Of a stretch of DNA of 64,000 nucleotides, positions 29,795 to 47,854 are shown in pieces. The notes beneath the pieces were generated by a model. The model saw only the letters and a program-made list of their open reading frames with translations. It was not told the origin of the DNA and did no database searches. The translations under genes were made by a program, and so were the position numbers. Numbering within the stretch: position 1 is the stretch's first letter; each line of letters starts with the position of its first letter. Source of the stretch: Candidatus Omnitrophota bacterium. GTDB lineage: Bacteria; Omnitrophota; Gorgyraeia; B26-G9; JBDRCZ01. The DNA is taken from positions 15,947 through 79,946 of the forward strand of contig JBDRCZ010000017.1 in NCBI GenBank assembly GCA_043821285.1, in the 5' to 3' direction.

Positions 29795-29832
29795 TTTTTT
29801 GTGAGAATAATTTTTTGTCATAAGACAAAAAA

Positions 29833-32820
29833 TTATATTGCTTGCTCTATAAATGTCAGGTTTTGGAATTGCGGTTTTGGAATTGCTGTTGTACTAGGGG
29901 GAAAATTAGGAAGTGGTGGATATCCAAAAAATTCTCTGGCAGTTGGATTTTGAATAGATTCAAAAGTAATCATACTTGGTGTCCCTCTATAAGTAGCTAT
30001 TTCTCCATTTAATTTTATTGTATTTTCATTATAATCATATGTAACAATTACCTGCAGTCTCTTACCTCTCTCTCCGCTTCTTGTGAGAACTAAGACGACA
30101 TTTAGTTCTGTAATTCTGCTTTGCATGGTATAAACTTGTATGCTTCCAATACTTTCAGGTATTTTAAGCTCTTTACTCCCAATTTTTTTACTCTCACTTA
30201 TAACTTCTTCTTCAATAATCTCTAAGCCTTCTGGCGCGTGAATTTCTCGTATCGCTTTCATCACTTCTTGCTTTAAATCTGGTGACAAATTTTGTACTAC
30301 TTCACTATTTTCTATAAATCTTATTTCCCTTGGATCAGTCCTCCGGCGTTCTTTGCCTTTTTTATCATCAAGTTCAAGAAATAGATATCCCCCGGTCGCG
30401 GAATTCCACGAAATCCTTGTTTGACCTTTATCATTGGCAGAAAAATTAATAGTAACATAGTTATTCGGACTGATTGTTAATATTGTTCCTTCACCAAATG
30501 ACGCGTGTTTCACCGTATCCCCTGCCCGCAATAGTGTTCCGTCAGGCAAAATAAGAGTAGGTCGAGCTAAGTTATTAATTACACTTCGTAACGCTATTTG
30601 TAGGTTTCCCTGGGAATTATTTTCAATATCAGGATAATTTTCAAAAAAGTCGTTTTGTGCCTTTTGTATTGCATTATAATGGCCTAATACTGAACAAATA
30701 GCTCCGTGATAGATGTATTCCTGGCGAATTAATGGATTATCCTGTTCACAAATTTGCCTTGATAACACTAAAGCCGGTTCAGGAAATAATTCGTTAAATT
30801 TCGCCTCACCTAAAATATTAATAATCTCTTGTTTTGTTTCTTCTGCATGTGAATAGAATTCAAGCACATAATCATCTTCTTGATTAAACACAACAGCATC
30901 AGTTACAATAATGCGTAATGGTATCTCACTTCCTGCAGTAGTATGCAAATACTTCCTTATTCTTTGTTCTATTTGTTCTATATCTTGCTTAAGATCATCA
31001 GTTTCATCGCGATACTGCCTATGGGAAAGATTATAGAGCATTTGTTTAAACGCACGGTCACCTTTGCGGATAAAGCCGCCTTCATTGTCTGTCGGATTAT
31101 TTTCTTTTGATCCTTCTCCTAATTCAGGAAGAAGGTGATATTGTTCAATTATTGCGGCTATTTCTTCAGGGTCATTTAGATTTCTGTTCCTAATTTTTTC
31201 ATAAACATCCGAATGCCAATTATCAATAGCATCACCTATAGCCTCATTTGACAACTCGCTACCTTGCGTTCGGGTAACTAAAAACATATACGATAATAAT
31301 GATAGTTTCATAGAATTTGGCAGAGTAGGTTCTTTGAGCATTTCTAATGGGGGTAACATACGGTTTTCTAAAACAGTTTTTACTTGTTCTGGAAAATCCT
31401 TCATAATAATAGGCCACAGCTTTAAAAAATTAACCAATGCTTCTTGATTTATTCTTTCAGGTGGAAACGCCTGGGAGTTTTTTTCAACTATTCTTTCTAT
31501 AAAATACAAAACTGCTCTGAGAGAGAAAATTTCTATGTTTGCATTTTGCGGAATTTCAACAGAAGAATTAACCCGTTCTCCATTAACAAGAATTATTGAT
31601 TTTTCAAAAGATAAGTCGTTTGCCTGGTATGTGGCTGAAATATAAGTAAGTAGTTCTGCTACAGTACTGCCTTTAGCAGGAATTCTAATTAATTCGTCAT
31701 TCCTACTGCCAATAAGTGAAGCAGAGATTCCTATTGTGTAAGGTAAAAGACAAACACTTATCCTTTCTTGATAAATTTGGCGTGTCTGTTTAGTTATAAT
31801 TATAGGTTTGCCAGCATTATCCCTTACTTCTACCCTACCCTCGTGTACGGCATGAAGAAGATTAAGAAAATCATCTGTGCTTTTAATTAAATTTTTATCT
31901 TTAGAAGCTAAATCATTCATAAGGCTAAGGGCATTAAGAAGATTTGCCCTATCATAAAGAGGAATCAAGCCTTCATTAATGCAGCGCTCGAGGTCTTCTG
32001 GTGTTTGAATAAATCTTGTATTAACATGAATCTCAAGTATCTTTTTAAGCGGGGCCCCGAGCGGTTCGTATTTACCAAAGATAAAGTTAAGCCCGCTTAT
32101 ATTATACATAGGAATATTCTTTGATATTCTAACTAAAGCATTACCGTATCCAATAAGACAGATTTTGGTCTCTTCAAAATCTTCTCTAGCGATTAAATCC
32201 TGAACCTGTATTAACCCCCTAAGCACCGCCTCTCTCCGAATATCTTGAATGTGTACTATTTCCTCGCGGATTTGCCGCATCGATCCTATCTTGCGCAAAA
32301 TTTGAGTTAATATTTTGGTATAAATTATAAAATGTAATAATTGGTCATCAGCTTCAACAATACCTTGTTTTTCCATTAAATACTGGATTAAAAATGCCCC
32401 ATGTTCAAACACATACTTGTCTTCATCAGAAACGCTATAAAATCTAACCAACCATTTATTAAGCGAACGCTTAAAAGACGATAAGGTATCAAAGCGTTGT
32501 ATAACATTTTTTGTTGCTAACAGGGCACTAAAGATAAGATTATGGATAATGTGACTAATGCCAGTTCTCTTGTTTTCTTGTAAAAGTTTATCAGCATCGA
32601 CTATTATTTTAGCTTCAGCAGATTCTTTTGCTAAAGTATCCGTTGCTTCGCCAGGATCACTAATATCTTTTGCAAAAATATCGCTATTTATGCTTAAGGG
32701 AGGGGCAAGATGGGTGTGTAGGCCTTTTAAATTGTTGCCGGCGGCCCAGGAGAGGTCGAGGCAGAAAAAAGCGTTAATTAGCATAATAACTGTTAGTTTA
32801 AACCAAATACTGCGTTTCAT
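29833..32820 (-). CDS. giant-family protein G1 (995 aa), function unknown
   Basis: N-terminus MKRSIWFKLTVIMLINAFFCLDLSWAAGNNLKGLHTHLAPPL; C-terminus ...NLTFIEQAI. Internal beta-grasp-like ILVNGERVNSSVEIPQNANIEIF and Tudor/UvrD-C-like AGDTVKHASFGEGTILTI. Confidence 0.8.
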   Translation of the reverse strand: MKRSIWFKLTVIMLINAFFCLDLSWAAGNNLKGLHTHLAPPLSINSDIFAKDISDPGEATDTLAKESAEAKIIVDADKLLQENKRTGISHIIHNLIFSALLATKNVIQRFDTLSSFKRSLNKWLVRFYSVSDEDKYVFEHGAFLIQYLMEKQGIVEADDQLLHFIIYTKILTQILRKIGSMRQIREEIVHIQDIRREAVLRGLIQVQDLIAREDFEETKICLIGYGNALVRISKNIPMYNISGLNFIFGKYEPLGAPLKKILEIHVNTRFIQTPEDLERCINEGLIPLYDRANLLNALSLMNDLASKDKNLIKSTDDFLNLLHAVHEGRVEVRDNAGKPIIITKQTRQIYQERISVCLLPYTIGISASLIGSRNDELIRIPAKGSTVAELLTYISATYQANDLSFEKSIILVNGERVNSSVEIPQNANIEIFSLRAVLYFIERIVEKNSQAFPPERINQEALVNFLKLWPIIMKDFPEQVKTVLENRMLPPLEMLKEPTLPNSMKLSLLSYMFLVTRTQGSELSNEAIGDAIDNWHSDVYEKIRNRNLNDPEEIAAIIEQYHLLPELGEGSKENNPTDNEGGFIRKGDRAFKQMLYNLSHRQYRDETDDLKQDIEQIEQRIRKYLHTTAGSEIPLRIIVTDAVVFNQEDDYVLEFYSHAEETKQEIINILGEAKFNELFPEPALVLSRQICEQDNPLIRQEYIYHGAICSVLGHYNAIQKAQNDFFENYPDIENNSQGNLQIALRSVINNLARPTLILPDGTLLRAGDTVKHASFGEGTILTISPNNYVTINFSANDKGQTRISWNSATGGYLFLELDDKKGKERRRTDPREIRFIENSEVVQNLSPDLKQEVMKAIREIHAPEGLEIIEEEVISESKKIGSKELKIPESIGSIQVYTMQSRITELNVVLVLTRSGERGKRLQVIVTYDYNENTIKLNGEIATYRGTPSMITFESIQNPTAREFFGYPPLPNFPPSTTAIPKPQFQNLTFIEQAI

Positions 32821-33140
32821 ATTACATATATGCTTTCATTCTCGTATTGAGTATCGCGTATTAATGTTTTAAATTCGAAATCCGAATATCTAAATGTTTA
32901 GAATTTGCCATTCGTCATTATAAGTGTTTTATTTTATCTATCTAGTTGATCCTGTCTAATTCGTTCTCGTATTGCGTTTTTTTATTGTCGTCTACTTGTT
33001 TTTATACTCAATACTCGATACACAATACACAATGCGTTGTTTAATCATTTCTCTCCGTGTTCTCTGCGGCTCTGTGTGATAAATTTTAGCTTTTATTTTC
33101 TGTCTTCTGAATTCTGATTTCTGTTTTCTGCTGTTAACTG

Positions 33141-36100
33141 TTAGATTGCTTGCTCTGCTATAAATATATTAGGTACTGTTATTTCTCCGGCACTTGGTAT
33201 ATCTTCAAGTAATGTGTCCGGTGCAAATACATTTTCATTAGCAGGATTGGCTCTTGTGGCTATATCTTTAGCGTTTATAACACGTTGTGAGCGTCTGTCC
33301 TTATGAGCACTAGTGTCATTCGTTTCCTTTTGTAATTTTGCAAGAAGAACCGGATTATCTTTTATTTCACGGTGATTTTTGACGTTGGGAAAAAAACCTG
33401 TTGTCAGTTTTCTTGCGGCGGTTAAATCATCAACAGTTTGAATAATCATTCCTAATTCACCATTTAAATCTTCGCTATGAACAACACCAGCTTCTAATCT
33501 TACCTGCATGCCTAATTCTGAAATCACTTCATTAACTTTGATTTCGATCGCTTTCAAAGTAGCGGCAATTTTTTCCGAAGTAATTATCCCATCATCTTCT
33601 CTATAAGCTCCTGCAAATTGATTATAAACATTGTTATTAATTGATAGAATTACATCATTTCCAACATTGTGGCCAAATACATCATTAATAACCTTAAATC
33701 CAAAATGCAATTGTGCAAATTGTGCATCTCCATTTAAGTCTGTTTCTCTGTAAAACTCTCTGTTGCCGCTTGCTCTTATGAAATCATTTATATTTATGGA
33801 TGTAGAACTAACTATATAATGTGCTGATAGTTTTATCAGTTGTACACGGTTATTTTCTCTTTTTATAACGAGGTAGAACTTATCAGGCCGTTCATGTACA
33901 ATACTGATTGAAACAGCAGATTTGCCGTCTAAAATGTTTTGAATGGTTTTGCCCAACTTATCTCTTTCTATTACCGGGTAAAACTTGTCTAAATCTTCTT
34001 TCGAAATACCCGCATCTATCATTTCCTGACGTATTCTTTCTCCTTCAACTCCTAATTGAAATTTTTTATCGTCAGCTATTTTAATCGGTGATTTTCTCTC
34101 TTCGCGCTCAGGATCTGGGCGTTCGGATAATCCTATTCCTACTAACTTGTTGGCATATTTAGTCCTGCGCTGGGTGTATTCCGCCTCATCTCTAGCAATT
34201 CTTAGTTGTTCCAATAGACTCATTTGGGAAATATTAGGTATATCACTTATTTTTACTGCTCCTACCGGGGCAAAGGGAACATAAACAGGAAAATAAATCT
34301 TACCATTAATATCAATGTCAAGACATTTAAGATTAGCGAGTATCTCGGATAGAACAGTGTTTTCATCCTCTTCTACATCTTTAGTGAACAGTATAAATGT
34401 TTCCTTAGAAGCCTTTTCTTCTTCTGGCGTTAAAAATACTGATTTTGTGACCGTAGTAATGTTTCTTTTTTTATTTTCTCTTAATTTTTCTATCAACGCA
34501 TCTCTGTTACTATCATTTATATTTTTTAGGATTGCAAAAACGTATTTTCCTTCAATCCGTTCTATGACCTTGCGTTGAATTTGTACGAGAAAGTGCTCAA
34601 TAACTTCTTTTGGCAACATAGGTGGTAACAAACCAACAACCTCATCACCACTAACATGATAAACTGTTCTACCTCTTTCTTCAATTTCTTTACGAGCTGC
34701 CTCAATTAATGTGTTAATTGCAAGTATATTCACATTTTCCCAGCCATATACATCATTTCTACCCCTTAGTTCGCTGATGTCAAAGAATATCACCCAAGCA
34801 TTGTCGTCGTGTCTACCTAAAAATACCACTGCTTCTTTTTCCCATTTTTGTGCATTTTCTGGATAGGCTTCATTAAGAAAGTTTCTTACGCGTGTTGTAT
34901 TATCAAATAAAGTGGTTAAATACATTATAAACTCTTGCAGTTCGTTATAGGGTTCGTCAGTATCTTTTCTACTTAAAAGAACATCTATCACCTTAGTAGC
35001 CGCGTCCCTAAATTGCTGATCATTAATATTTTGGTTAATAATTTTTCTCCACTTCTCACCTAAACGCTTTATTTCAGCCTTCAGAAACATTTCTATTGCT
35101 TCCTCATCTTCGCCTTGTTCTTTACACCTATCTACTTCTAATATTACTTTTTCTACATCTGCGCCCAACTCAAAAGCAAAAAATTCCCCATCTCGTTCCT
35201 GACTGGAATTTTCTCTTGGCAAAATGCTTGCCATACCTAAGCTAAATGCTGCGATTAAACCTGCGGTTCCTCCTCCCATCCCTGATTGAAGCATTGATGC
35301 TGCGGAAAATTCTGGTTGAGATGGGAAATAACCAAGTGCTCGCATTAATGTTCCAATAGATGCTGCTAAAAGCACGATGGATATTTTAGGTTTATTTCCA
35401 AACCATGCAACTAACCTCCTAATTAGCGTACCTAACCTGTTCTCATGGGAAGGACTTTTGTTTAATGCCCTCCAACCAGTTGGATGCATAAATGCTACAT
35501 TAGTTGCTTTGCGTCTACGATGAAGAAGTCCGCTTATATTTGCAGGAAATATTATTTTTCTGCTTATCCACTTTTTTACCTCATAAGCAATATATATTAA
35601 TGTTAAAATTATGCCCAAACCAGGTATTACCATACAATCGCTAATAAAATTATTCCACTGTTTAACACGAGCATAACCTTCTCTTACAGTAAAACTATCA
35701 ATAAAAAACTCTTCTCCCATCGGTGGCATGATACCAAACTTAGCAATAAAATCTGCCTGGTTTTTAAATGCTTCTGTTGTTTCTGGATTGATATCAAAAA
35801 AAGGAATAACTAATCGAGCAATGTTAAAAATCAACGTTACTGGGTTATGTTTTATAAGAAATTCCATTGGGTTTTTAGGCAAATTATCGACATGATGACT
35901 TAAACGCACTAATGTAACAGCGTATTCAAAAATTCCTCGCTTAGTAAAGAAATTTAATCCAATATTAGGATTACCCCATGTTCCATTCCATCTTGAACCA
36001 TAGACAATATCAAAATTGCTTTCACGGATAGGTGGATTATTTGTCATAAGAATTTGGTAAGTTTCGGGAGAAACTAATTTTATCAAAAATAGCGCTGGTC

Positions 36101-39100
36101 CAATATGTTCTGCTCCTTCAGTTCCATCTCTTCGCTCAATAAAATCGTCCAACATGCCCGCAGCTTTATATTCATTGTAAAGTTTAATTACGGCTGTATC
36201 GATTTCCTGAGCTCTTTTTCGTGCTGTTGATTCTATAAATGATCCCGTGTTTTCATCAATTTTTGATGCAAGTGGAGAGTTTTGAAATGTTTCAATTAGA
36301 TTATGGAATTCATTTAAAGCTATTTGTAATTCTCCATTATTTTCTTGTAATGATACAGGTTGTGGTAATTCATTAAGTTTTAAACTGTCAGCTGGTGTTG
36401 GCTGTACTAATCCACTTTTTCCAACTGGTTCTAAAGATACAATGTTTAATGGTGCAGCAATTCCGATTGGTGCTAATATGGTCTGTGATCCGATAGCGAG
36501 GATAGTGAGTAAAGGCAATACTACCTTACGTGCAAAAGAGAAGTTAACACTGTGTTTAAAACCCCAGCCAAAAATAGCTAATCCTATCAGTCCTATTGCC
36601 GCAATTACAGCACCTGGCAAACCAAAAAATAACCCTGCAAACCCAATTGCCATAATTAACCCATCGATTGAAAGTGCTGTGGTTCCATTAGGTAACCTAC
36701 GGCTGGAATTATTATCCGGCGCAGTAATCTCTACATTATCTCCATGATTAAACGTCTGTTCTAAGTCTTCTACGCTTCTGGGCAAGCCGTTAACTTTTAA
36801 CACCAACTCCCCAGACTGGAGCATTTTTTGTGTGGTTAGGATGGCTTTGCGATTACGATCATTATAATAAGAAATCTGTGAAGTAATAGTCTTAATAAAT
36901 AAATATGCCAGCAGATCATAGATATTTGTTGCGGGAATCTGTTCTGCTGATATCAGTTCTCTAATACCATCTTGTTGACTATTACTGGCTTCTTTAGTTA
37001 TTGTTAATTGGATTAATGCTTTTTGTTCTTCTTCTTGCAATTTTTGAGTTTGCTGAGTTATTTCATCCTCTAAAAGAGCTAATCCAGCCCTATGCTGCTC
37101 TAAGATATCTTTTTCAGGATCAAATTCCCCTTCAGCACAAATTATTAACCCATTTGGCATAATATAGTAGACTATATTGAGATAGCCATGTGTGCTTTTG
37201 CCGATCATCAGTGAGTTTTTATTATTTAGCCAACCTTCGTACCTTTCCTTATGAAGCATAATTTGTTGGCTATGTGTATAATATCTTAACGTTGCATTAA
37301 TAAAACCTTGCGCATCGGCTTCCTCTTCTTTACGATAAGTAAGTGTTGTTCCATGCCCAATGAAACCATTTTTATAATGTTCAGGTAAGTTCTTCCATTC
37401 TTTGTTCAAACCACTTTCAATCCTTTGATGCAGTGATTTGTTTCCAGGAGCCGGTATGACACGTTCTGGCTCTGATGCTAATATCTCAAAGCTCGTGAAG
37501 GCATAAAAAATATTTTCTCTATCTGTCGCAATACCCATGCGTGTTTGACCCAAATTATCAGTTACTACCTGCCAGGTTGTTAATCCTATTTCTCGAGTAT
37601 ATGCAATTAGCGCCAGTTCGTATATTTCTTCTGTTAATAGTCCATCATTTACCATCCGCACAAAAAGCTTAAGAAATTCGTTGCTGTGATATATAAACCC
37701 GACCAATATTACTAAAGAAATTTTTCTTAATCTTTCTGTTGCGTTCTCTTCCTTTTTGAGTTTACAATAGATTGCTTCTATTGCAGTAACACAATCACTT
37801 TTGTATTCTGAGCCTATTGGATCGTCTTCTAACAAGATATTCCCTAATATCTGAACCGCGTATTCTGTTCCAATATCACCTAAAAGGTTTTTAACAGCCC
37901 TTAGGCGTAAGTAAAGCGGGTTAGTTTTATCATTCAACGCATTTGTCACAAGTTTTTCTGCAGGTTCACCAATTCCTCTTATAATCTCCTCACCAAGCAA
38001 AAGTAAGTTGGTTAAGTTCATATTAATTATATATCTATTTGGTTGTTGAATTAATGTTCTCATTCGCTTAATACAAGATTCAATCACATGTGCTCCCAAT
38101 ATCTCTTTCCTGCCAATTTCAACTAAATAGTCCTTTAAAAGTTCTTTTCTTATGTTAGCAAGCTCATAAGCTGAATGAAAAAATAAAATTATTAAACTAT
38201 CAGTTATTTTATCAACCATTTGTTTAATAATATTGTTTTGGTTTTCTGCTCTGGGATTTATTTTTAATGCATTGGCAATTTCAGTTATAAACTGTCTATC
38301 TCTATCTGATAATTCATCCTGTTGAATTCTATTGTATAAGACGAATAAATATCTTATAAAATAATTGAGTACCTCAATAACAGTTCTAAGAAAATCTAGT
38401 TCAGTTTCGTTAAATACTTCTTTTTTTTCAAATTTTTCCTGTGTCATTTGCTCAAATATTTCTTTTATCAATATAACCACTCGTATTTCATTACGTTCTT
38501 TAAGTATGTTAATAAGTAAACGTCTTATCCTCAGGTCAGAAGATTGAAGCACGTATTCTCTTATGTGGGGAAATGCCCGCTCGACAATATTACCTAACAC
38601 CGAAGAGGCAATTGTAACACGTGTTCCGCGATATATTAATCCCTGTTCACTTAATTCTGTAACAGCAGATTGAAGATTATCTTCTGATTTTTTTGCAATC
38701 TCCGTCAAAATATCAATAATCACATCTTGTTTTTTTTCTCCATGATCAAGCAGGTGCCGGATAGCTTTTACGCCAAACCCTTTAACCAAAATATCTTTAA
38801 TATCAGATGTTATTTCACGATCTTCACTATGAGCTGATAAGGCATCTGTTAAAAGGTCCATTGCCGTTGCAATTGTATCTTCATCTCTATTAGCAAATTC
38901 ACCAAGTTCAGCCATATTATCAGTACGTGAAGCGCGATCTCTATACGTAGCTAACTTATTAATCACATCCTGTATGTAAGCTCTCGTTGTACTATTATAA
39001 CTATTTCTATTGCTAAAATGCTTTGTTGTATCTTCTCCCGGATTGCCCCAATCTTGTAAACTAGAAAAAGGTAACTTTAATCCACCTATTCCGGCAAATG

Positions 39101-39581
39101 TCAGTTTAGGGTTTATGCATTGCCAAAATAAATAAACTACCCCTGTTATCATTAACAATACATAAGGATTATTAAAATAACCATGAGGTATATTAGAAGA
39201 TAAGGAAATAATTATTTGCTTAAGTGGGTATAAGATTGTGCTTAGCGGTATTATATTGCTTATTACCAACACAGAAAATATTGCTAAAGCAGTTATACCG
39301 GCAATATAAGCTAATGTTCTGAATCTGTTTAAAAAGATTGGTGATTCTGTTGTAGGTTGTTTTGTTGTGATGGTAGCTGGGGCATGAGGTGTCATTTTTT
39401 CTCCTGAAATTATGAAAGCATGTTCCGTTACGGAATTAGCTATTTGCAATTCAGGGGCAAGGTGGGTGTGTAGACCTTTTAGATTGCCGCCGGCGGCCCA
39501 GGAAATGTCCAGGCATAAAAAGGCATTGATTAATATTATGGAAATTAGTCTAAAATAAATTTTACGTGTTAAATTATTCAT
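33141..39581 (-). CDS. giant-family protein G2 (2146 aa), multi-pass membrane, two GGDEF-like segments
   Basis: N-terminus MNNLTRKIYFRLISIILINAFLCLDISWAAGGNLKGLHTHLAPEL; C-terminus ...NIFIAEQAI. Several long hydrophobic stretches. Confidence 0.8.
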   Translation of the reverse strand: MNNLTRKIYFRLISIILINAFLCLDISWAAGGNLKGLHTHLAPELQIANSVTEHAFIISGEKMTPHAPATITTKQPTTESPIFLNRFRTLAYIAGITALAIFSVLVISNIIPLSTILYPLKQIIISLSSNIPHGYFNNPYVLLMITGVVYLFWQCINPKLTFAGIGGLKLPFSSLQDWGNPGEDTTKHFSNRNSYNSTTRAYIQDVINKLATYRDRASRTDNMAELGEFANRDEDTIATAMDLLTDALSAHSEDREITSDIKDILVKGFGVKAIRHLLDHGEKKQDVIIDILTEIAKKSEDNLQSAVTELSEQGLIYRGTRVTIASSVLGNIVERAFPHIREYVLQSSDLRIRRLLINILKERNEIRVVILIKEIFEQMTQEKFEKKEVFNETELDFLRTVIEVLNYFIRYLFVLYNRIQQDELSDRDRQFITEIANALKINPRAENQNNIIKQMVDKITDSLIILFFHSAYELANIRKELLKDYLVEIGRKEILGAHVIESCIKRMRTLIQQPNRYIINMNLTNLLLLGEEIIRGIGEPAEKLVTNALNDKTNPLYLRLRAVKNLLGDIGTEYAVQILGNILLEDDPIGSEYKSDCVTAIEAIYCKLKKEENATERLRKISLVILVGFIYHSNEFLKLFVRMVNDGLLTEEIYELALIAYTREIGLTTWQVVTDNLGQTRMGIATDRENIFYAFTSFEILASEPERVIPAPGNKSLHQRIESGLNKEWKNLPEHYKNGFIGHGTTLTYRKEEEADAQGFINATLRYYTHSQQIMLHKERYEGWLNNKNSLMIGKSTHGYLNIVYYIMPNGLIICAEGEFDPEKDILEQHRAGLALLEDEITQQTQKLQEEEQKALIQLTITKEASNSQQDGIRELISAEQIPATNIYDLLAYLFIKTITSQISYYNDRNRKAILTTQKMLQSGELVLKVNGLPRSVEDLEQTFNHGDNVEITAPDNNSSRRLPNGTTALSIDGLIMAIGFAGLFFGLPGAVIAAIGLIGLAIFGWGFKHSVNFSFARKVVLPLLTILAIGSQTILAPIGIAAPLNIVSLEPVGKSGLVQPTPADSLKLNELPQPVSLQENNGELQIALNEFHNLIETFQNSPLASKIDENTGSFIESTARKRAQEIDTAVIKLYNEYKAAGMLDDFIERRDGTEGAEHIGPALFLIKLVSPETYQILMTNNPPIRESNFDIVYGSRWNGTWGNPNIGLNFFTKRGIFEYAVTLVRLSHHVDNLPKNPMEFLIKHNPVTLIFNIARLVIPFFDINPETTEAFKNQADFIAKFGIMPPMGEEFFIDSFTVREGYARVKQWNNFISDCMVIPGLGIILTLIYIAYEVKKWISRKIIFPANISGLLHRRRKATNVAFMHPTGWRALNKSPSHENRLGTLIRRLVAWFGNKPKISIVLLAASIGTLMRALGYFPSQPEFSAASMLQSGMGGGTAGLIAAFSLGMASILPRENSSQERDGEFFAFELGADVEKVILEVDRCKEQGEDEEAIEMFLKAEIKRLGEKWRKIINQNINDQQFRDAATKVIDVLLSRKDTDEPYNELQEFIMYLTTLFDNTTRVRNFLNEAYPENAQKWEKEAVVFLGRHDDNAWVIFFDISELRGRNDVYGWENVNILAINTLIEAARKEIEERGRTVYHVSGDEVVGLLPPMLPKEVIEHFLVQIQRKVIERIEGKYVFAILKNINDSNRDALIEKLRENKKRNITTVTKSVFLTPEEEKASKETFILFTKDVEEDENTVLSEILANLKCLDIDINGKIYFPVYVPFAPVGAVKISDIPNISQMSLLEQLRIARDEAEYTQRRTKYANKLVGIGLSERPDPEREERKSPIKIADDKKFQLGVEGERIRQEMIDAGISKEDLDKFYPVIERDKLGKTIQNILDGKSAVSISIVHERPDKFYLVIKRENNRVQLIKLSAHYIVSSTSININDFIRASGNREFYRETDLNGDAQFAQLHFGFKVINDVFGHNVGNDVILSINNNVYNQFAGAYREDDGIITSEKIAATLKAIEIKVNEVISELGMQVRLEAGVVHSEDLNGELGMIIQTVDDLTAARKLTTGFFPNVKNHREIKDNPVLLAKLQKETNDTSAHKDRRSQRVINAKDIATRANPANENVFAPDTLLEDIPSAGEITVPNIFIAEQAI
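33400..33790 (-). other. GGDEF-like segment 2 of G2 (degenerate)
   Basis: LHFGFKVINDVFGHNVGNDVIL...AYREDDGIITS. The FKxINDxFGHxxGDxxL block is kept, but the signature is degenerate (EDDGI). Confidence 0.5.
34350..34830 (-). other. GGDEF-like (nucleotidyl-cyclase fold) segment 1 of G2
   Basis: VIFFDISELRGRNDVYGW...TVYHVSGDEVVGLLPP parallels DxDxFKxxNDxxGH...RxGGDEFxxxLP. The signature reads SGDEV. Confidence 0.55.
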
Positions 39582-40054
39582 AAGTTAATAGCCTATCAGT
39601 TAATTCCAAATGTTCCGCCTATCAAACCGGCGGACAGGCAAATAATAAAATCCAAATGACAAATGAATCATTTAATATCTCAATCTAAAAATCAAAATGA
39701 TATATTAAAATTCAAATATTTTTCTCTTTGACAGGATTTACAGGATTAACATGATTTTTTATCCAGTTAATCCTGTCTATTTTCTTATTTTCTCTGTGAA
39801 CTTTGTGTTCTCTGTGGTTATAAATTTTTTTATTTTTTTTAATCGTAATACTCAATACATGCTACTCAATACGCATTACTTTTTATAGTGTGCTCTCTGT
39901 GGTTAAAATATTTTTTGTTTTTTTATCTACATAATCATCCGTATTCTACGCTCTCTTTTATATGCACTATTTTCATTACAATCATACATATTGTAACCGC
40001 TAATAATTACAATCTGTTAAATATATTTATAACAATTTTAATATATACAAGTAA

Positions 40055-40082
40055 AGTATACCATATTTTTCTGATTTTTCAA
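40055..40082 (-). promoter_or_regulatory. sigma70-like promoter for G2(-G1)
   Basis: Minus strand reads TTGAAA, 16-nt spacer, TGG-TATACT (extended -10). Near-identical to 59561-59589. About 470 nt upstream of the G2 ATG. Confidence 0.6.
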
Positions 40083-40421
40083 GGATTTTGCTAAAAAAAT
40101 ATAGAAAATAACAGATTAAAAGATTCAGGTGATCACGGTTTTAAAACAGTATCAAGGCATTATTTATAACTTATTTATTTATAATATATTATAAAATAAT
40201 TATCGAATATGCCTACATGTTAATTATTCGTGAAATTCGTGTAATTTGTTGTTTAAAAATAAGCAGTTAAAGTTTTTCTTTGTGTGATAAATTTTATTTT
40301 TTACCGCAGAGAAAATCTAAAAGAAATCTCGTTCACAGATGTATGTAAGTTACATCCACTTTCTATTCTTAGTGCGTTACGTAAACGGTAAACTGCCTGC
40401 CTCCCGTTAGGGAGGTAAACT

Positions 40422-40446
40422 AAAAAATTGCCATAGGCAATTTTTT
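40422..40446 (-). terminator. terminator hairpin after G3
   Basis: Minus strand reads AAAAAATTGCC-TAT-GGCAATTTTTT then AGTTTACC. Overlaps the stop codon by 2 nt. Confidence 0.55.
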
Positions 40447-43400
40447 AAATTGCCCGTTCAATTTCAAACAAATCTGCTATCTCTCTCTTCTCCAGTTTTG
40501 TATCTGATCCATTTATGCCTACCCTATAGCCAGTGTGTCTTTCTTGGGGAGCAACTATTAGAGAATAAAGAGCGTGTAGTAACAGCATATCAGAATCAGA
40601 AATATGAGGGTCTATATTTTTTGCTTCTAATATTGATTCATCATCGCTTATTATTTCTTGTATAATTGTTTTTACTATATCTCTATCTTCAGCTCTGCAT
40701 TTTTCATGAATTGCATTCAGACATTGTTCAAAAAATGGTCTGAGCATCATAAGCTGAACATTATCTTCTTGTGTATATGCATTGGCAACTGCTTTTGTAA
40801 CTGTTTCTAAAACAGTTTGCCGGTAATCTGGTCTTACCGTATAGATATTATCAAAAAAGATAAAAGTCCCGGCTGCGGCTTGTGGCATTATTGTCTTGTT
40901 TAGTATCTCATTAATAACATTTCGAGGAAAATATACTAAAATACTTAATAATTTATCTATTGTAGTATTACTTGGGGTTAAACCTTGCTGCTGGATCAAC
41001 TCTTGATATTTTCTTCCTATGATTCTATGCATAGATTCAAGACTTCTTCTATTTGCATTTATCATTAAATTATTTCCTTTAACTGCTGTAACTAAGTCCG
41101 TTAATTCGCTTCGTATCATTTCTCGTTCTTTCTCAAATACATCCGTATCTTCGTTCCTCTGAGATATAAATAACCCTAAAAATTCAAGTTCTAATGCTTT
41201 TTTAAAGGCATCTTCCGAAGTAAATGCGTTTAATCTAACAGTAATATTTTCTAACAACATTAGCTCAAAGCTGGTACCTTGACGAAAAATATGTTTTAGA
41301 AATTTTTCTGCATTAGTAAATTCGGGTGAAAAGATGATTTCTCCACTGACACCATCTACTGTTTTCTCCATCACTTCATTTATCAAATTACCTACTGAAT
41401 CTAAGTTGTGAAACTCGTTTAATCTATTTTCATCTTGTATAACAGCTCTTAAATAAACCTCCATTCTTAAAAGGTAATCAGCCAAAAAAACACCATCAAT
41501 TGCAAAACGTATATTTTCATTCGTATCTTGAGTTCTTGCAGTCAAGGCTTGATAAAGAAAATCATCTATATCGGTCAACATTCTATAAAAGATTTCCATT
41601 GCTGTTTCCTTATCCTGTTTTAGAGCAAGTTCGAGGACATTATTAACATTTGAAAAATCTCGTGAAATATACTCCTTAATTACATCACATAACGCATTGA
41701 ACAGTGGTTTTTTATCACGACGGTAAATAGCAAAACTTAGCCTAATAAATGCTGCTAATATCTCATGGGAATTAAATCCTGAATTTATTAAATAACTTTG
41801 CTCCTTTTCTATATAGATTGGTATAATTTTAGAAACGTCATATCCCGCAATAACTGTGTAAGCAACTGCAGCAAAAATAAGATTATGTGTTTCTGCATCA
41901 TGTTTAGGAATGTTTATTCGTTGTAAGATTTCTCCTAATACTTCTCCTGCCTCAGTAGTTCTCTCCTCTTTTCCTTCAATCTGCGCTTTTATTTTATTAG
42001 TAAAAAATTCAAAAACAAAATCAGGTTCTGCCTTAAGATACGCTTCTATTGTTTCCCAATCTGCTGCTAATAAATTACGCAGTTTTTGGATTTTATCTTG
42101 AACCACGATTAAGTTATTTCGTAGATTGCTTATTTTTTTCTGATTTTTTCTCGTTTGTTTTTGCTCTTTGTTTATGGTTTGCTGAATAGTTCTTTCATTG
42201 CTTTGGCGACGATTAAGTGCCTGCGTCCTTGTAATAACTCCTTCTAAGAGGATTGTTACTTCAGAGAGTTTTTCTCTACGCGCTTTTACTGCCGGGGGCA
42301 TATCTAAAAGTAGAGGTTCCCTTGTTGTCACTGGAGCCTGCCATGCTGGAAGTTCTTCAGATGCTACTTGCATAGCAGCAGCGCCTTGAAGGACCTGAGG
42401 ATATAATGAATGTTTTTGCATTGGGTCTTCAACTAACATAAGCTCACAACTTTGAGGCGGTTTGAGAGCATTAATTCTATTTTGGATAACTACTCCCAAT
42501 CCCCAAGCCCATTCTGCTTGACTTTTATATAAATCAACTAAGGCTTCAATATCCTCACTTTCGTTTATAATTGCGGTTATTCTCTCTACCAGAGGAGCCC
42601 GGCTGTTTCTGTTAGGATAGGTATTAAGCATTTGATATAATTCAGGTATATTACTTAAATCATTATAACCGAGTAATCTTTTTCTCAGTACCTCTGCTAT
42701 TACCCCCCTTATTTGCTTACATCCGTAGGTATATTTATTTATAGAATTATCTGTAAGTAAACGAAGCAGGTTTTCGATATCTAAGGAAAACACTTGCCTG
42801 ATAATACCGAAAATAATATATATTTCTACTTCAGAGTGAATTTTTTTACTAAGTAAATTAGCTAATGCAGCAAGTGCCTCGCCCCCCCATTTACTAACCA
42901 TCTCCTGAGCAATAGCTTGAGCTTGTGTTTTGTCATTATTTTCTGCTTGCTGACGTTTAAATCTATCGGAAATTGCGGTTAATCGTTCAATGCCATCTTC
43001 AATCGAAGAAACAGTTAGGTGTATTTCTGATATTTTTCCTTGAGAAGCAATACTATTACTTAATTGTGCGGCTGCTGCTTGCTTTGTTTTCTGGGGTAAC
43101 CTTGGATTTCGTGACCACTCTGAAAGCAAGCGATCATTTACTTCTGCTAATCTTTTTGCAGTGCTTAACGCCTTAATTCTATACCAAAGATAATTATTCC
43201 AGTATTCATCGTCCCATTCTTGGCTTAGATACACATCAACTAAGGCAACAATATCTTGATTATTTTTTATTATATGTTTCATCCTTCTTCTTGCCAGATC
43301 TTTAATGTCTTCGTTCGGACATAATGTTTCATTATTAATAACATAATATAATGCAGAAATACTTGTTACGTTTCGAGGAATGCTAACAGTTTTTATGATA

Positions 43401-46400
43401 ATTATGCTTTTAATCATACCTCTGGTAACTTCAGCTCCTTTAGTTTCTTGCTGATTCATCGCAGTATATAAATAAAATATTTCTGTAACAGACATTGAGT
43501 TAAGACAATTACCAAGTGCCGACATAGTTATTTCTATTGCTTCTTCATTAAGAAGATTCGTATCAATTTGCTCAGCAAATTGTTTAATAATTTCTAAAAA
43601 CTCATCTTTATCCTTTGTGTTATACATTTCTGTTATAATATTTTTAACTTCTTGAGGAGCGGATGCAATAAAGGCTTGTATTTCTTCGGGTGTCTGATAA
43701 TAATCAGCCAACTCTTTCTCCAGCTTTTCTATTTGTGACGCAATTGTCGTATCTAGTTCTGGTTTATTAATTCGCAGCCACTCTATTATTCTTTTTCTTA
43801 CTGTCCGATCTTGGATGCCAATCAATAATCCTAGTACATGCACTACCTCGTTTTCTAAACACATGTATTGTGACAAGATGTCGTTAAGTTCCGTATTCGC
43901 TGCATTGCTAAAGAATAGGTATATAGTACCAGCAATATGTTTTTGTATGCCCGTAAGTCTAAGGATTTTTTCACTCAAAATATTTCTTATGCTCGAACCC
44001 CAGCTTCTTTCTAAATATAATTCTACTGCTGTCTTTAAATTATCACATTCATTAACCAGTTCTCTTATTCTCATCCTTAGCAGTGCCCGGGTTCCTTCAT
44101 GGTACTCTCTATCATTGAGCAAATCTTGCAGTGGTTCGATACTAGCAATGCCTTGATATTCAGCAAGGCGCTGTTTGATCGCTTCTATTAATTGACTACT
44201 ATTGTCCCCATGATTTAACCTACGCAATAGTTCCTCTAAGGTGAGAGTTTTTATGGGGTCAAAATCTGCTAGTAGTTCTGCAAAAGTTACTTGATTATCA
44301 GAAGGCGCTGCAACTTCTCTTGTCGGGGGGGCATCCCTGTTGGTGTCGGCTCTTTGATTAGCGTTTCGCCATGCTGCTCTTAAGGCACGTGTATCTGACT
44401 GTGATGGTGGCTCTGGAAAATGTACCACCTGAGCTGCATTCGACGGAGCTGTTGTTCGTACAAACCTATCTGGAGGGGATAGTGATAGATCGAAAGCAGC
44501 TGCTAGTTTTTCTAATGAGTTTAGAGTCAAAGGGTTATTGTTTCCTGATGGAGGAACTGTATCTTTTGGTAAAGCAACTTCTGCTGTGTCAGTCCCTTCC
44601 TTTTCTGGTTGTCGCAAGTCACCTGATTGTAATGGTACGGTGTATGCTTGAGGGTTATTTTCTTTTTCCCTTTCCCTTTTCCTTTTCTTTCTTGCAATAG
44701 GAGGACTATCTGCTCTATATTGTTTACGTGCTTTCCTTTTCATTAATACAACTTTATCTTCTTCTTCATCATCATCATATTGGTCACTATCATCTATTGC
44801 ATTTATTAACTCCTCTATTATGAGCATTAAAGCAATCCGTATATTTTCTTCTGATAATTCACCCGAACCCTCTTGCATCAATTGCTCAATTTCTTCCTCT
44901 GACAAAGTTAAATCGTTTATAACACCAATGAGCTGTTCAATGATTTGACCATTCTCGTGTGCGCTTTCAATTATATTATCTATAGCATCTTTTAACGCTT
45001 CATGATATGTATCTTCATCAAGTAGTAAATAAGTTTTTACTAAAAAACTAAGATCTATTTCTAAAGCACTATTTCTCGTTGATCTTACGCCGGTACTACC
45101 AAGCAAGCATAGTAAACTAAATCCCCAAGCCAACCCCTTCCAAATAAAAAATGCCAGTGCATCTGGTCTTGCGGCAACAAAGTGTACTACTGGATATAAT
45201 AATCCTTCATGTCGTGCAAGAGAATTTATGATTGTAAATTCGATGTAGTCGATAATAATGAGCATAGCTGATTTAGCACCAGTAACCGCCTTTTTAACTA
45301 ATTCCCAAACATTTGGTATAAATTGTATCTGCGGTTGTATATATAAAGGAAAGGTCATTATTAAGGAAAGACCTAATATAGCGTGTATTGGTAAATGCCC
45401 TAAGTTTACACTAACCGGGATGCCCGTGATATTACTGATTACCTCTAATATAAAAGGTGCAATCAATAATAAAAAGAGGCCATTTATTAATGGATGGGAA
45501 TTCAGGGTAACACTCTTACCAGCATTACTTTCTTGATAAAATTCTCTTACCGCTCTATTTGTTTTTATTAAAGCACGTAAATCAATAATGATATTTCCAT
45601 TTCTATCTTTACGAAGGTCATGTTTATTTTCCTTGTCAGATAAAAATATCTTATCATCTTCTTTCACAATTTTATATTCCACGTTACCAATCCAAATAAT
45701 ATCATTTTCCCTGAAAGTTACTTCTTTCCTTAAAATATCAATGATTAATTCCTTGCTGTTTGCTTCGTTACGCAGAAGAATAGTATTACCAGCTATTGCA
45801 TATTTTGTATTATCTATCATTCTGTCTTGATGCCACCATGCTATTCTGAGTTTGTAACCATCACCCTTTCCCTCAGTTTTTATTTTTTTTAGACCATCTG
45901 TTGGGAAAAATTCTAACCGTTCTCGTAAACGCTGGATTTTAGTATTGTATTGTCTTATATCTAAAATTCGCTTGTTATGAATGTTCTGAATTACAGCTAA
46001 TAACTCGTTGTCCTTAATACTTGCTAATAATGCGCCATAAAAGGCCAGACCTAAGCTATCTACTCTTAAAACTATTCTTTCTATTTCTGTGTGTTTGTTT
46101 TTGTTAAATAGAGTTGTTAAATAATTAGCCAATATCAGTACAAATTCCCCGCCCCACCACTTTATAACCTCAACCAATTGACCAAGAGACTGCGGTGTAA
46201 TATTTTGATGTTCATTCAGGAGATTTTCAATAATTTGTAATACTGCAGAAACTGAATATACACCAAATTGTTCGGCCAAAGCTTTGATTATTGCCAATCT
46301 TTGCGTTTCATCAAAATTATTAAGATTAGCTTCTTTTTCTTTCATCATCTTAATATAATTTTCGGCTGAATCCCAATCTTGAGTAGACTTATTAGTATCC

Positions 46401-47536
46401 CAATACTGTACTGGTTTGCGATACACTGCTTTTGCTGCTACTAATATATTTTTTTCTTTCTCTGTAAGTGCGGTGTCATCATTTGTCCATATCCTAATCA
46501 TTCCGTGTCTTGGTGCTGTTATATAAAATGAAATTTTTGACGCAAGAAACTCTTCCCATTCTTCTGGAGAAGGCACAGTTGATAAATCAGCACGTAAACG
46601 TATAAAACGGTTATAGTTTTTATTTTCGTTATTAATTATGTCTGCCGGAAGCAGCCGCCGGCCAACATGAATTTCTATATTAGAGTTTTCTGGTATTGGT
46701 TGGGTATAACGGCTTCGATCAGGGGTTGAAACATTCCAGTAGTTTTGTGTTGATATACCAAATCTCAAAGATTCGTTATCTATTTTTATGCTCTCGGGAG
46801 CAAAAAACATCATCATAATTGCATGCGCAGGTAAACGTATTGCATCAATCCAGTAGTGAATTCCTTTACGATAACTATACTCAAGGATAATTTTAATACC
46901 ACGTTCAAACAGAACTTTTAATCCGGGTAAAAAGGCAATATTATTAAATACGCTGTTGGTATTTAATCTAAAGACTTCCATATCCCTGGGGACAGTAAGC
47001 ACTATTCGCGGAGACGCACCTTTAATATCTATTTTTCCATAAGTAGTAATTTCACTTTGCAAATCACGCGCCAACCCAAGCAAACTTAGAAAGTCAATTT
47101 CTTTTAGAACCGGGGGTATTCTTTCAACCGTCTCATCATCTGGACAAGGTATTTCTGGAATTTCCCTAATATTTAATTGATTGTTTTTTTTAGAAATTAC
47201 ATAAGAACGTTGTTTACCAGCTGCGCCTGTTGTTACAAACAATACTATCGAACCATCATTCGCAAATCTTTTCTCGCATGCATCAAACTCAAACTTATCT
47301 TTAATATAACTTACGCCAACATGTCCTTCTGCCCAAGTATATGCATCACTTATTTTTTTGTAAAGCATAATATTTTCTGCAAATAGAGGGTCATTTACTT
47401 CCAAAGGCGGGGCAAGATGGGTATGTAGACCTTTTAGATTGCCGCCGGCGGCCCATGAGATGTCTAAGCATAGAAAGGCATTGATTAATATTATGGAAAT
47501 TAGTCTAAAACAAATTGTACGTGTTAAATTATTCAT
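40445..47536 (-). CDS. giant-family protein G3 (2363 aa), function unknown
   Basis: N-terminus MNNLTRTICFRLISIILINAFLCLDISWAAGGNLKGLHTHLAPPL; C-terminus ...DLFEIERAI. Contains a TM cluster and an acidic then basic/Pro-rich low-complexity segment. The C-terminal ~500 aa are paralogous to G6. Confidence 0.8.
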   Translation of the reverse strand: MNNLTRTICFRLISIILINAFLCLDISWAAGGNLKGLHTHLAPPLEVNDPLFAENIMLYKKISDAYTWAEGHVGVSYIKDKFEFDACEKRFANDGSIVLFVTTGAAGKQRSYVISKKNNQLNIREIPEIPCPDDETVERIPPVLKEIDFLSLLGLARDLQSEITTYGKIDIKGASPRIVLTVPRDMEVFRLNTNSVFNNIAFLPGLKVLFERGIKIILEYSYRKGIHYWIDAIRLPAHAIMMMFFAPESIKIDNESLRFGISTQNYWNVSTPDRSRYTQPIPENSNIEIHVGRRLLPADIINNENKNYNRFIRLRADLSTVPSPEEWEEFLASKISFYITAPRHGMIRIWTNDDTALTEKEKNILVAAKAVYRKPVQYWDTNKSTQDWDSAENYIKMMKEKEANLNNFDETQRLAIIKALAEQFGVYSVSAVLQIIENLLNEHQNITPQSLGQLVEVIKWWGGEFVLILANYLTTLFNKNKHTEIERIVLRVDSLGLAFYGALLASIKDNELLAVIQNIHNKRILDIRQYNTKIQRLRERLEFFPTDGLKKIKTEGKGDGYKLRIAWWHQDRMIDNTKYAIAGNTILLRNEANSKELIIDILRKEVTFRENDIIWIGNVEYKIVKEDDKIFLSDKENKHDLRKDRNGNIIIDLRALIKTNRAVREFYQESNAGKSVTLNSHPLINGLFLLLIAPFILEVISNITGIPVSVNLGHLPIHAILGLSLIMTFPLYIQPQIQFIPNVWELVKKAVTGAKSAMLIIIDYIEFTIINSLARHEGLLYPVVHFVAARPDALAFFIWKGLAWGFSLLCLLGSTGVRSTRNSALEIDLSFLVKTYLLLDEDTYHEALKDAIDNIIESAHENGQIIEQLIGVINDLTLSEEEIEQLMQEGSGELSEENIRIALMLIIEELINAIDDSDQYDDDEEEDKVVLMKRKARKQYRADSPPIARKKRKREREKENNPQAYTVPLQSGDLRQPEKEGTDTAEVALPKDTVPPSGNNNPLTLNSLEKLAAAFDLSLSPPDRFVRTTAPSNAAQVVHFPEPPSQSDTRALRAAWRNANQRADTNRDAPPTREVAAPSDNQVTFAELLADFDPIKTLTLEELLRRLNHGDNSSQLIEAIKQRLAEYQGIASIEPLQDLLNDREYHEGTRALLRMRIRELVNECDNLKTAVELYLERSWGSSIRNILSEKILRLTGIQKHIAGTIYLFFSNAANTELNDILSQYMCLENEVVHVLGLLIGIQDRTVRKRIIEWLRINKPELDTTIASQIEKLEKELADYYQTPEEIQAFIASAPQEVKNIITEMYNTKDKDEFLEIIKQFAEQIDTNLLNEEAIEITMSALGNCLNSMSVTEIFYLYTAMNQQETKGAEVTRGMIKSIIIIKTVSIPRNVTSISALYYVINNETLCPNEDIKDLARRRMKHIIKNNQDIVALVDVYLSQEWDDEYWNNYLWYRIKALSTAKRLAEVNDRLLSEWSRNPRLPQKTKQAAAAQLSNSIASQGKISEIHLTVSSIEDGIERLTAISDRFKRQQAENNDKTQAQAIAQEMVSKWGGEALAALANLLSKKIHSEVEIYIIFGIIRQVFSLDIENLLRLLTDNSINKYTYGCKQIRGVIAEVLRKRLLGYNDLSNIPELYQMLNTYPNRNSRAPLVERITAIINESEDIEALVDLYKSQAEWAWGLGVVIQNRINALKPPQSCELMLVEDPMQKHSLYPQVLQGAAAMQVASEELPAWQAPVTTREPLLLDMPPAVKARREKLSEVTILLEGVITRTQALNRRQSNERTIQQTINKEQKQTRKNQKKISNLRNNLIVVQDKIQKLRNLLAADWETIEAYLKAEPDFVFEFFTNKIKAQIEGKEERTTEAGEVLGEILQRINIPKHDAETHNLIFAAVAYTVIAGYDVSKIIPIYIEKEQSYLINSGFNSHEILAAFIRLSFAIYRRDKKPLFNALCDVIKEYISRDFSNVNNVLELALKQDKETAMEIFYRMLTDIDDFLYQALTARTQDTNENIRFAIDGVFLADYLLRMEVYLRAVIQDENRLNEFHNLDSVGNLINEVMEKTVDGVSGEIIFSPEFTNAEKFLKHIFRQGTSFELMLLENITVRLNAFTSEDAFKKALELEFLGLFISQRNEDTDVFEKEREMIRSELTDLVTAVKGNNLMINANRRSLESMHRIIGRKYQELIQQQGLTPSNTTIDKLLSILVYFPRNVINEILNKTIMPQAAAGTFIFFDNIYTVRPDYRQTVLETVTKAVANAYTQEDNVQLMMLRPFFEQCLNAIHEKCRAEDRDIVKTIIQEIISDDESILEAKNIDPHISDSDMLLLHALYSLIVAPQERHTGYRVGINGSDTKLEKREIADLFEIERAI

Positions 47537-47854
47537 ATGTTAATACCCTGTTAGTTAATTCCAAATGTTCTAATTCAAGATTTAAAAATTCCAAGATTCC
47601 AGATTCTAAAATTATAAAATTCCCCGCTACAAGGTCGAAGATCCGCCATCGTATTAGTGAAGAACGCTGGCGAACAGGCAAATTCTCTAACCTTCGGCAA
47701 GTAAAACGTTTTGAATCGTTAAATCTTAAAATATTCAAATTTTGGAATTGTTTGTTTTATTCTTCTGTCTTCTATTCTCTACCTTCTGTTTTCTGCTTTC
47801 AATCAGCTGTATCAGTAAACGGTAAACTGCCTGCCTTCCATTAGGGAGGTAAAC

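Follow-up and report, generated by a model that had tools for sequence, protein, structure and literature searches.

Long spacers in an Omnitrophota giant-gene array are probably paralogous promoter and leader modules built of dispersed intergenic repeats

The two sequences considered here are long spacers in a tandem array of at least six paralogous giant genes (G1-G6), which occupies the second half of a 64,000-nt stretch of the genome of a Candidatus Omnitrophota bacterium (contig JBDRCZ010000017.1; this whole stretch is hereafter called the window). Their closest described counterparts are intergenic repeats and the leaders and promoters of surface-structure genes. The short tandemly repeated repetitive (STRR) heptamers of heterocystous cyanobacteria, reportedly described by Mazel et al. 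in 1990, comprise several tandem 7-nt families that are found in intergenic DNA only, at times form inverted arrays and have no known function. Repetitive extragenic palindromes (REP) and bacterial interspersed mosaic elements (BIME) are short repeats scattered through extragenic DNA, many of which fold into hairpins between genes. RfaH/ops, LoaP leaders and EAR are antitermination elements of long surface-structure operons. Finally, in the fimS and Bacteroides capsule systems, inverted repeats a few hundred bp apart bracket an invertible promoter of variable surface-type genes.

In our assessment, the spacers upstream of G2 and G5 are, with a probability of about 0.6, paralogous promoter/leader modules built of dispersed intergenic repeats of the STRR/REP kind within a recombining giant-gene family, heading two transcription units rather than carrying a dedicated regulator. 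Duplication and gene conversion of gene 5' regions, together with the spread of generic intergenic repeats, would account for the similarity of the two spacers, and selection for one folded regulatory RNA would not. The heptads of the window are, like STRR, tandem 7-nt units of several families, found in intergenic DNA only and at times as inverted arrays; they differ in their units (GTATTGN, CAGAAAN and GTTTACN) and in belonging to a host of another phylum. The nonamer arrays that stand beside them differ from STRR in having a fixed 7-nt core, variable 2-nt linkers, a TTAAC-type prefix and a cross-phylum spread, although such CACAGAG arrays are also present on Nostoc, Anabaena and Calothrix plasmids. 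REP and BIME resemble the repeats described here as short dispersed extragenic elements with frequent hairpins between genes, whereas the present arrays are tandem nonamers shared across phyla and not single GTAG-headed palindromes.

The promoter pattern TTGAAA-N{12,15}-TGGTATACT has exactly two matches in the 64 kb and none in 100 shuffles, with one match in each long spacer, pointing at G2 and at G5, respectively. At the G2 promoter (40055-40082, minus strand), TTGAAA and TATACT are separated by 16 nt and accompanied by a TGG extension, and the predicted start at ~40048 corresponds to a leader of ~467 nt. The G5 promoter (59561-59589, minus strand) has the same hexamers and TGG extension with 17 nt between them, a predicted start at ~59554 and a leader of ~518 nt. 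Both sites and their similar flanks had been proposed in a preliminary description of this DNA and are confirmed as the only matches in the window; the spacing of 16 and 17 nt given there holds as the distance from TTGAAA to TATACT, while that from TTGAAA to TGGTATACT is 13 nt for G2 and 14 nt for G5. On local alignment, the -35 block CCTTGAAAA is identical at 9 of 9 positions and the extended -10 block ATATGGTATACTT at 13 of 13, with ~5 of 11 identical bases and a 1-nt indel between the blocks. The flanks (40088-40018 and 59595-59525) are 75% identical over 73 nt by BLAST, and TGTTATAAAT..ATTT..TAACA is shared on the 3' side of both promoters. About 14 nt past the predicted G2 start lies an imperfect palindrome, TGTTATAAATATATTTAACA (40015-40034, minus), a possible operator or 5'-terminal RNA hairpin; the equivalent position at the G5 promoter is taken by a palindrome with perfect 10-nt arms, TGTTATAAAT-TT-ATTTATAACA (59520-59541, minus).

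Each hexamer agrees with its consensus at five of six positions (TTGAAA for -35, TATACT for -10; 10/12 in total), and in both copies a TG lies one base 5' of the -10 hexamer, within TGGTATACT. When this class was defined strictly (at least 10/12 hexamer positions plus the TG), seven sites were found in the window, six of them intergenic and 5' of a same-strand gene despite the coding share of 86.5% in the window, namely a hypothetical open reading frame (ORF), PilZ, an insertion sequence (IS) transposase, H-NOX, G2 and G5. The distance from the -10 hexamer to the ATG is 27-40 nt at three of these six sites, 185 nt at PilZ, 474 nt at G2 and 525 nt at G5; the long G2 and G5 leaders are thus exceptional among the strict-class promoters of the window. 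Because the boxes are conserved around a diverged spacer and six of the seven strict-class sites stand upstream of same-strand genes, both sites are probably genuine extended -10 sigma-70 promoters. They resemble the known TGnTATAAT type in their hexamers, 16/17-nt spacing and TG, and other such sites in the window also precede genes; they differ from the usual promoters of this type in a leader of unusual length (470-520 nt). To our knowledge, no extended -10 promoter has so far been mapped in a member of the Omnitrophota.

The ~470-520 nt that follow each promoter are untranslated and A-rich (42-43% A). Two shared elements of these leaders that the preliminary description had pointed out were recovered by BLAST: a leader block with 77% identity over 159 nt (39931-39776 versus 59467-59324; E = 5e-30; repeat families D5 and D9) and a hairpin word with 91% identity over 44 nt (39643-39600 versus 59098-59056). 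The T-run lengths reported there were likewise reproduced by direct reading as T7+T8 in the G2 copy and T6+T9 in the G5 copy, which gives a total of 15 in both. In the G2 leader, the repeat block (39788-39931, minus) consists of two units (39889-39931 and 39788-39845), each an A-run followed by a (T)TAACCACAGAG nonamer array, and of the GTATTGN heptads that separate them (39846-39888). The G5 block (59337-59492, minus) begins with heptads (59461-59492), continues with a unit of A-run and CACAGAG array (59423-59460) and, after more heptads, ends with an A-run and ACCACAGAGCTCGCAAAGTTCACAGAGAAAA (59337-59392). The G5 leader contains one further array, CACACAGAGACACGGAGCACACAAAG, together with a homologue of a block from the G2 spacer (59128-59230, minus). 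That block, ATCACACAAAGAAAAAC...CACGAATAA (40224-40286, minus), is 81% identical over 64 nt to 59128-59191 and had gone unnoticed; in the G2 spacer (40286-40224) it precedes the promoter, and in the G5 spacer (59191-59128) it falls within the leader.

Closer to the G2 start codon, a local hairpin, GACAGGATTAAC...GTTAATCCTGTC (39730-39777, minus), folds with -18.5 kcal/mol (z -4.8), and G1, G4 and G5 are likewise preceded by its TAGACAGGAT module (families D13 and D14). The hairpin word TTTGCCTGTCCGCCGGTTTGATAGGCGGAACATTTGG (39600-39643, minus) ends 18 nt before the G2 ATG, its G5 counterpart lies at 59056-59098 (minus), and degenerate copies are found upstream of G3 (47640-47680) and G4 (53585-53615). 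Folding of the whole leaders gave z = -3.5 and -2.4, and the local hairpins account for the difference from shuffles; the hairpin word itself does not exceed shuffles in stability (z -1.3 to -1.5). When the whole window was searched against Rfam at the gathering threshold, only a tRNA was found, and permissive scans of both long spacers returned chance matches to miRNA-hairpin models only.

An all-against-all BLAST of the spacers, combined with repeat families D1-D18, resolved every G spacer into a mosaic of a few modules whose order is not fixed. The terminator with GTTTACN heptads follows G3, G4, G5 and G6; CAGAAAN heptads occur upstream of G1, G3 and G4; A-runs with CACAGAG-type nonamer arrays precede G1, G2 and G5, and an inverted one lies downstream of G1. 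The TAGACAGGAT hairpin belongs to G1, G2, G4 and G5, the TGCCTGT-CGCC...GGCGG hairpin word to G2-G5, and GTATTGN heptads are a further module of the G spacers. The spacers measure 320 nt (G2-G1), 863 nt (G3-G2), 341 nt (G4-G3), 1757 nt (G5-G4) and 922 nt (G6-G5); the values for G2-G1 and G4-G3 had been given before, as had ~270 nt for G5-G4 after removal of an IS (270 nt as measured here). The short spacers lack the promoter by pattern scan, again in agreement with the earlier account, and still carry several of the 'leader' modules. For instance, the G2-G1 spacer is made of the same modules as the long leaders: its start (33043-33140, minus) is unstructured (0 kcal/mol) and contains CAGAAAN heptads, the array ATCACACAGAGCCGCAGAGAACACGGAGAG and GTATTGN heptads. 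No conserved second promoter was found in the short spacers; a secondary promoter at their TAGACAGGAT or TTGAAT modules was considered and rejected, a good -10 being present only in the G1 copy. At their 5' ends, G2 and G3 share 89% of their DNA sequence over 175 nt (repeat family D1), which suggests gene conversion.

Several of these modules recur in other parts of the window. Period-7 arrays were located at 7333-7362, 7481-7514, 29593-29614, 33004-33033, 33097-33130, 55262-55287, 59269-59284 and 59464-59485; the array at 29593-29614 consists of GTATTGN heptads upstream of the H-NOX gene. In the spacer between guaA and dnaE, GTATTGN arrays form an inverted pair (7333-7364 and 7476-7521). The order there is GTATTGC x4 and, ~120 nt away, the inverse CAATACT x5, a layout like that around the G2 and G5 promoters. 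In a viral collection, GTATTGN x4 matched 28 loci, many of them tandem repeats of giant viruses. Hairpins of the form CCGCC-loop-GGCGG have five matches against 0.13 expected, each upstream of a gene. The PilZ leader holds two copies, with GGCGGGTCATTTAAA as in G5, and the GNAT gene has one upstream copy, with GGCGGATCTTCGAC common to the G3 and GNAT leaders. We also observed that the CCGCC-N9-GGCGG hairpins at 16660-16738 (in the 185-nt PilZ leader) and 23405-23440 (GNAT) are followed by (G/A)NCATTT or ATCTTCGAC. As judged from their near-identity to pieces of the G2-G5 hairpin word, the PilZ and GNAT hairpins appear to make this word a genome-wide family of leader hairpins.

The preliminary description had taken the long leaders to suggest RNA-level or DNA-binding regulation, and had named leader blocks that prove to be generic intergenic repeats as the finding that would contradict it. 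The latter is largely what was found, because GTATTGN heptads, CCGCC-loop-GGCGG hairpins and CACAGAG arrays are present beyond the G leaders; with these elements recurring in unrelated spacers and phyla, and no Rfam match, a dedicated regulation of this kind for the G genes is left unsupported. In a more specific version, the leader would be a processive-antitermination or Rho-protection device that carries RNA polymerase over the terminators of the giant genes, as RfaH/ops, LoaP leaders and EAR do. The resemblance to such systems, including the UpxY 5' untranslated regions of Bacteroides, lies in a long leader at the head of a long unit of large, probably exported proteins with internal terminators. 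Leaders of 474 and 525 nt (-10 to ATG) are confined to these two promoters, against 27-185 nt for the others of the class; terminators follow G3-G6 and the short spacers have no strong promoter; the hairpin word is conserved at 91%; the arrays of the window are confined to G spacers; and in B. fragilis a similar array is placed between a capsule-locus gene and its invertible promoter, directly before the gene, as part of a primer (PMC3090145). However, the leaders lack the ops-like GGCGGTAGnnTG and match nothing in Rfam, and a search of the window genes for a NusG paralogue found none. The modules are moreover arranged differently in the two copies and recur in promoter-less and unrelated spacers, and the hairpin word folds within the range of shuffles. 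Two one-mismatch matches to the ops/JUMPStart element GGCGGTAGnnTG do exist in the window, both outside the leaders and at the rate expected by chance. We thus regard a dedicated cis-regulatory leader as unlikely.

The transcription units suggested for the modular spacers depend on the gene ends. A weak, A/U-rich terminator, made of a hairpin and a T-run, stands after G1, G3, G4, G5 and G6, with energies between -9.5 and -13.7 kcal/mol (z -3.2 to -6.0). The 3' side of G2 has no terminator (folding energy 0 kcal/mol). The terminator-like hairpin of G3, AAAAAAUUGCC-UAU-GGCAAUUUUUU (40420-40448, minus), has the stop codon in its 5' arm and belongs to a homologous family (D3) with members after G4 (47854-47881), G5 (55288-55310) and G6 (59929-59958); G1 is followed by a different hairpin (~29803-29836). 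The terminator stems have 3-4 G-C pairs each, flanking A- and T-runs, and the stop codon in the 5' arm. Because of this position of the stop codon, a terminating ribosome could disturb folding of the stem, which is compatible with the 'leaky terminators' proposed earlier. The last codons of G3-G6, GCA ATY TAA (Ala-Ile-stop), are complementary to the 5' arm of the following terminator (40420-40454, 47854-47890, 55288-55320 and 59929-59966), and three segments at these gene ends, GGCAAU / AUUGCC / GGCAAU, permit alternative pairings. Translation could modulate termination at G3-G6, and the conserved C-terminus of the G proteins may be constrained at the nucleic-acid level.

The two promoters would accordingly drive G2-G1, with no terminator between them, and G5, and from G5 transcription would continue into G4-G3 by read-through of the weak terminators, in which stem and stop codon overlap. 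Of the two units put forward in the preliminary description, P->G2-G1 is plausible, because the sequence after G2 is unstructured, and no comparable promoter was seen in the short spacer; P->G5-G4-G3 is possible, provided that these terminators are leaky. The sequence gives reasonable support to the promoter assignment and to the G2-G1 unit; the G5-G4-G3 unit and any regulatory role of the leader are proposals. The G5-G4 spacer is interrupted by an IS of the IS701 family (53753-55231, plus strand; 1479 bp), which has 22-bp terminal inverted repeats with one mismatch and is inserted within the heptad region. Its transposase gene (53922-54986) is antisense to the G genes. Since its 8-bp target duplication, TGATAGAA, is intact, the insertion is suggested to be recent.

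Among the modules, the nonamer array led furthest beyond the giant genes. It is made of the core CACAGAG (with variants CACAAAG, CACGGAG and CACGAAG), variable 2-nt linkers and a TTAAC or TTCAC prefix, and is edged by an A-run before it or a T-run after it. In the window it occurs at 39788-39931, 59176-59460, 33043-33100 and 29756-29795, and elsewhere at loci L002 (2538-2663), L003 (1686-1770), L125 (1503-1690), L126 (1350-1760) and L216. The 32-nt pattern ACCACAGAGnnCnCAAAGTTCACAGAGAAAAT, taken from two leaders, has exact matches in two metagenome contigs of 62% and 56% G+C, in both of which it forms one arm of an intergenic hairpin directly after a stop codon. In the viral collection, CACAGAGnnCACAGAGnnCACAGAG matches at least 120 contigs. 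Among the viral matches listed, 116 of 137 unique arrays have differing linkers, and most carry TTAAC, TTCAC or TTGAC as a prefix. With a reversed word as control, 55 arrays were obtained, of which 52 were plain perfect tandem repeats and three had variable linkers. BLAST against plasmid records found the array in Bacteroides (16 records), Nostoc, Anabaena, Calothrix, Gemmatirosa and Pseudoalteromonas, with 22 and 15 places in two Gemmatirosa megaplasmids. In these records the arrays stand between genes, solo or as inverted pairs. Outside the window most arrays are solo: among the matches listed, 126 of 153 have no partner within 600 nt. The solo arrays of the viral contigs tend to be in sense orientation a short way upstream of ORFs (58 on the same strand versus 30 on the opposite, by naive ORF calls). 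Arrays of the viral contigs also co-occur with other heptad arrays.

No Rfam family was found for the array examples tested, and no published description of the array in the literature searched, where its string appeared only in PCR primers such as the B. fragilis one cited above. A preprint on Omnitrophota giant genes does not mention promoters or intergenic regions. The arrays favour a position and orientation at gene boundaries that suggest a widespread intergenic element, and we consider this cross-phylum array the most interesting lead of the analysis. In line with the view of the spacers as repeat-built modules, the arrays would most likely have the role that they seem to have elsewhere, as generic transcript-boundary or leader elements that form a hairpin when paired with an inverted copy, and not as G-specific sensors. 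A stronger proposal, tentative and of low probability, is that the A-run followed by (T)TAACCACAGAG-nn-CACAGAG-nn-CACAGAG is a discrete functional cis-element shared by bacterial phyla and their phages. Its action, on RNA or DNA, would take place at gene boundaries, where it might offer a conserved protein a binding platform or supply one arm of a stem for processing or termination. The inverted copies around each G promoter and the sense copies in the leader would then make the long leader a device that separates or extends giant-gene transcription.

Some observations stand beside this subject. In Bacteroides finegoldii (L216, 15188-15640), an inverted array pair with arms 437 nt apart encloses a gene for a 125-aa 'GxxExxY protein', and other array pairs in the L216 records are empty hairpins. 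A decayed small-gene cassette between the arms was rejected for the G spacers: tblastn of GxxExxY against the window gave noise (E >=2), and viral array pairs enclose ordinary genes. The window also contains a Y1 transposase-like ORF (27148-27954, minus; 268 aa; Pfam Y1_Tnp 2e-14), which scores 75.7 bits against the model of REP-associated tyrosine transposases NF047646 (cut-off 80). Its 3' end crosses a perfect 21-bp palindrome, CTTCAAAGCTAAGCCCCCAGC/tatg/GCTGGGGGCTTAGCTTTGAAG (27155-27200). A link of the repeats to a REP-associated transposase was discarded, as no array or heptad adjoins 27148-27954.

Each of the two promoters is bracketed by inverted copies of the CACAGAG array, which the preliminary description had not noticed. 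Upstream of the G2 promoter, the inverted array TCTGTGAAC...TTCTCTGCGGT (40296-40339, minus; ~44 nt with gaps) can pair with 39790-39825; upstream of the G5 promoter, a 38-nt array (59799-59836, minus) can pair with 59337-59374 at 74% complementarity, the two arms being 424 nt apart. The arms of the G2 spacer form a duplex of -24.9 kcal/mol, compared to -10.7 +/- 2.8 for shuffles, and those of the G5 spacer one of -42.3 kcal/mol, compared to -19.1 +/- 3.3. Two minor rivals build on this arrangement. In the first, the arms would serve as an insulating long-range stem: RNA reading through from G3 or G6 would fold into an interrupted stem of ~35-40 bp around the promoter segment, a possible target of RNase III, and RNAs started internally would hold the downstream arm only. 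The occurrence of inverted arms in both spacers, 424 to ~470 nt apart and with duplex energies beyond those of shuffles, agrees with such a stem, as do the inverted pairs and hairpins that arrays commonly form between genes elsewhere and the equal layout, with heptads, of the guaA-dnaE spacer. Against these stand arms that are just 74-79% complementary and the solo state of most arrays elsewhere (the 126 of 153 matches listed that lack a partner), and we find an insulating function quite improbable.

The second rival is a phase-variable promoter, in which the ~430-480 bp between the inverted arrays would flip and switch G2-G1 and G5(-G4-G3) on and off. As in fimS and the Bacteroides capsule loci, a promoter lies between inverted repeats in both spacers, and the genes behind it form a paralogous family of variable giant proteins that are probably surface or secreted. 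Here, however, the repeats are imperfect, with longest exact stretches of 9-10 nt, and generic, being an array dispersed over many genomes and mostly without a partner. Scans of the ORFs with Pfam and NCBIfam found no serine or tyrosine invertase gene in the window, where the IS701 transposase and the Y1 REP-type transposase-like gene are the only recombination genes, and both copies are in the ON orientation; inversion has in our view a very slight chance. A hidden small gene before G2 and G5, either a plus-strand hydrophobic peptide (39751-39888 and 59309-59422) or an upstream ORF beginning MIHL, is rejected in spite of ORFs with similar translations in both spacers, since substitutions in the plus-strand ORFs are spread evenly over codon positions (7/5/5) with a frame offset that shifts between aligned blocks, a 1-nt indel puts the upstream ORFs into different frames after LPV and their ATG is missing upstream of G3 and G4, and a T-rich strand is naturally poor in stop codons.

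The reading of the long spacers as paralogous, repeat-built promoter and leader modules has to be set against several points that weigh against it. Inverted arrays that flank the promoter in both copies are not predicted by a purely neutral mosaic. The hairpin word, as the best-conserved piece of the leaders, hints at constraint. All eight CACRRAG arrays of the window lie in G-array spacers, so that a G-related role for the arrays may be possible. In DNA as AT-rich as this, loose sigma-70 matches show no enrichment over shuffles (85 against an expected 78), and a single loose match therefore means little; promoter activity, leader length and read-through are predictions. Lastly, no orthologous locus was retrieved by searches with peptide patterns, exact proteins or the hairpin-word DNA.

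The locus itself lies in a window of 36% G+C and 86.5% coding share, in which the minus strand carries the giant genes one after another between 29.8 kb and the end of the window (29833-64000). G1 (29833-32820) encodes 995 aa, G2 (33141-39581) 2146 aa, G3 (40445-47536) 2363 aa, G4 (47878-53553) 1891 aa with transketolase domains and G5 (55311-59036) 1241 aa with a methyltransferase domain, while G6 extends from 59959 past the window end; all are on the minus strand. G2 corresponds to a hypothetical protein with locus tag ABH952_01580, as found by protein search. All G proteins share an N-terminal segment, ..F.L..I.LINAFLCLDISWAA..NLK.L.THLAPPL, which resembles a signal anchor, and the C-terminus ..EQAI. 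Their middles are mutually unrelated and enzyme-like (transketolase, methyltransferase), and complete members range from 995 to 2363 aa; the G genes encode variable giant proteins that are probably surface or secreted ones. A search of 5.8 billion clustered proteins found only two further members of the family, both from Omnitrophota. N-terminal peptide patterns found no relatives in collections of genomes and metagenomes, G1, P0003, P0005 and P0004 had no matches when looked up as exact proteins, and the hairpin-word DNA pattern, used as an orthologue probe, gave one chance match in a spirochaete.

For the biology of this uncultured phylum, the analysis offers a testable map of transcription units for a giant-gene family. 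If G4-G3 are read from the G5 promoter, the IS in the G5-G4 spacer should be polar on them. The G2 and G5 sites suggest that extended -10 sigma-70 promoters are used in Omnitrophota. More generally, the case shows that 'conserved blocks' shared by paralogous spacers need not be riboregulators and can be repeats of a generic, dispersed kind. The CACAGAG array could be studied in the tractable Bacteroides, and may matter more than the leader itself.

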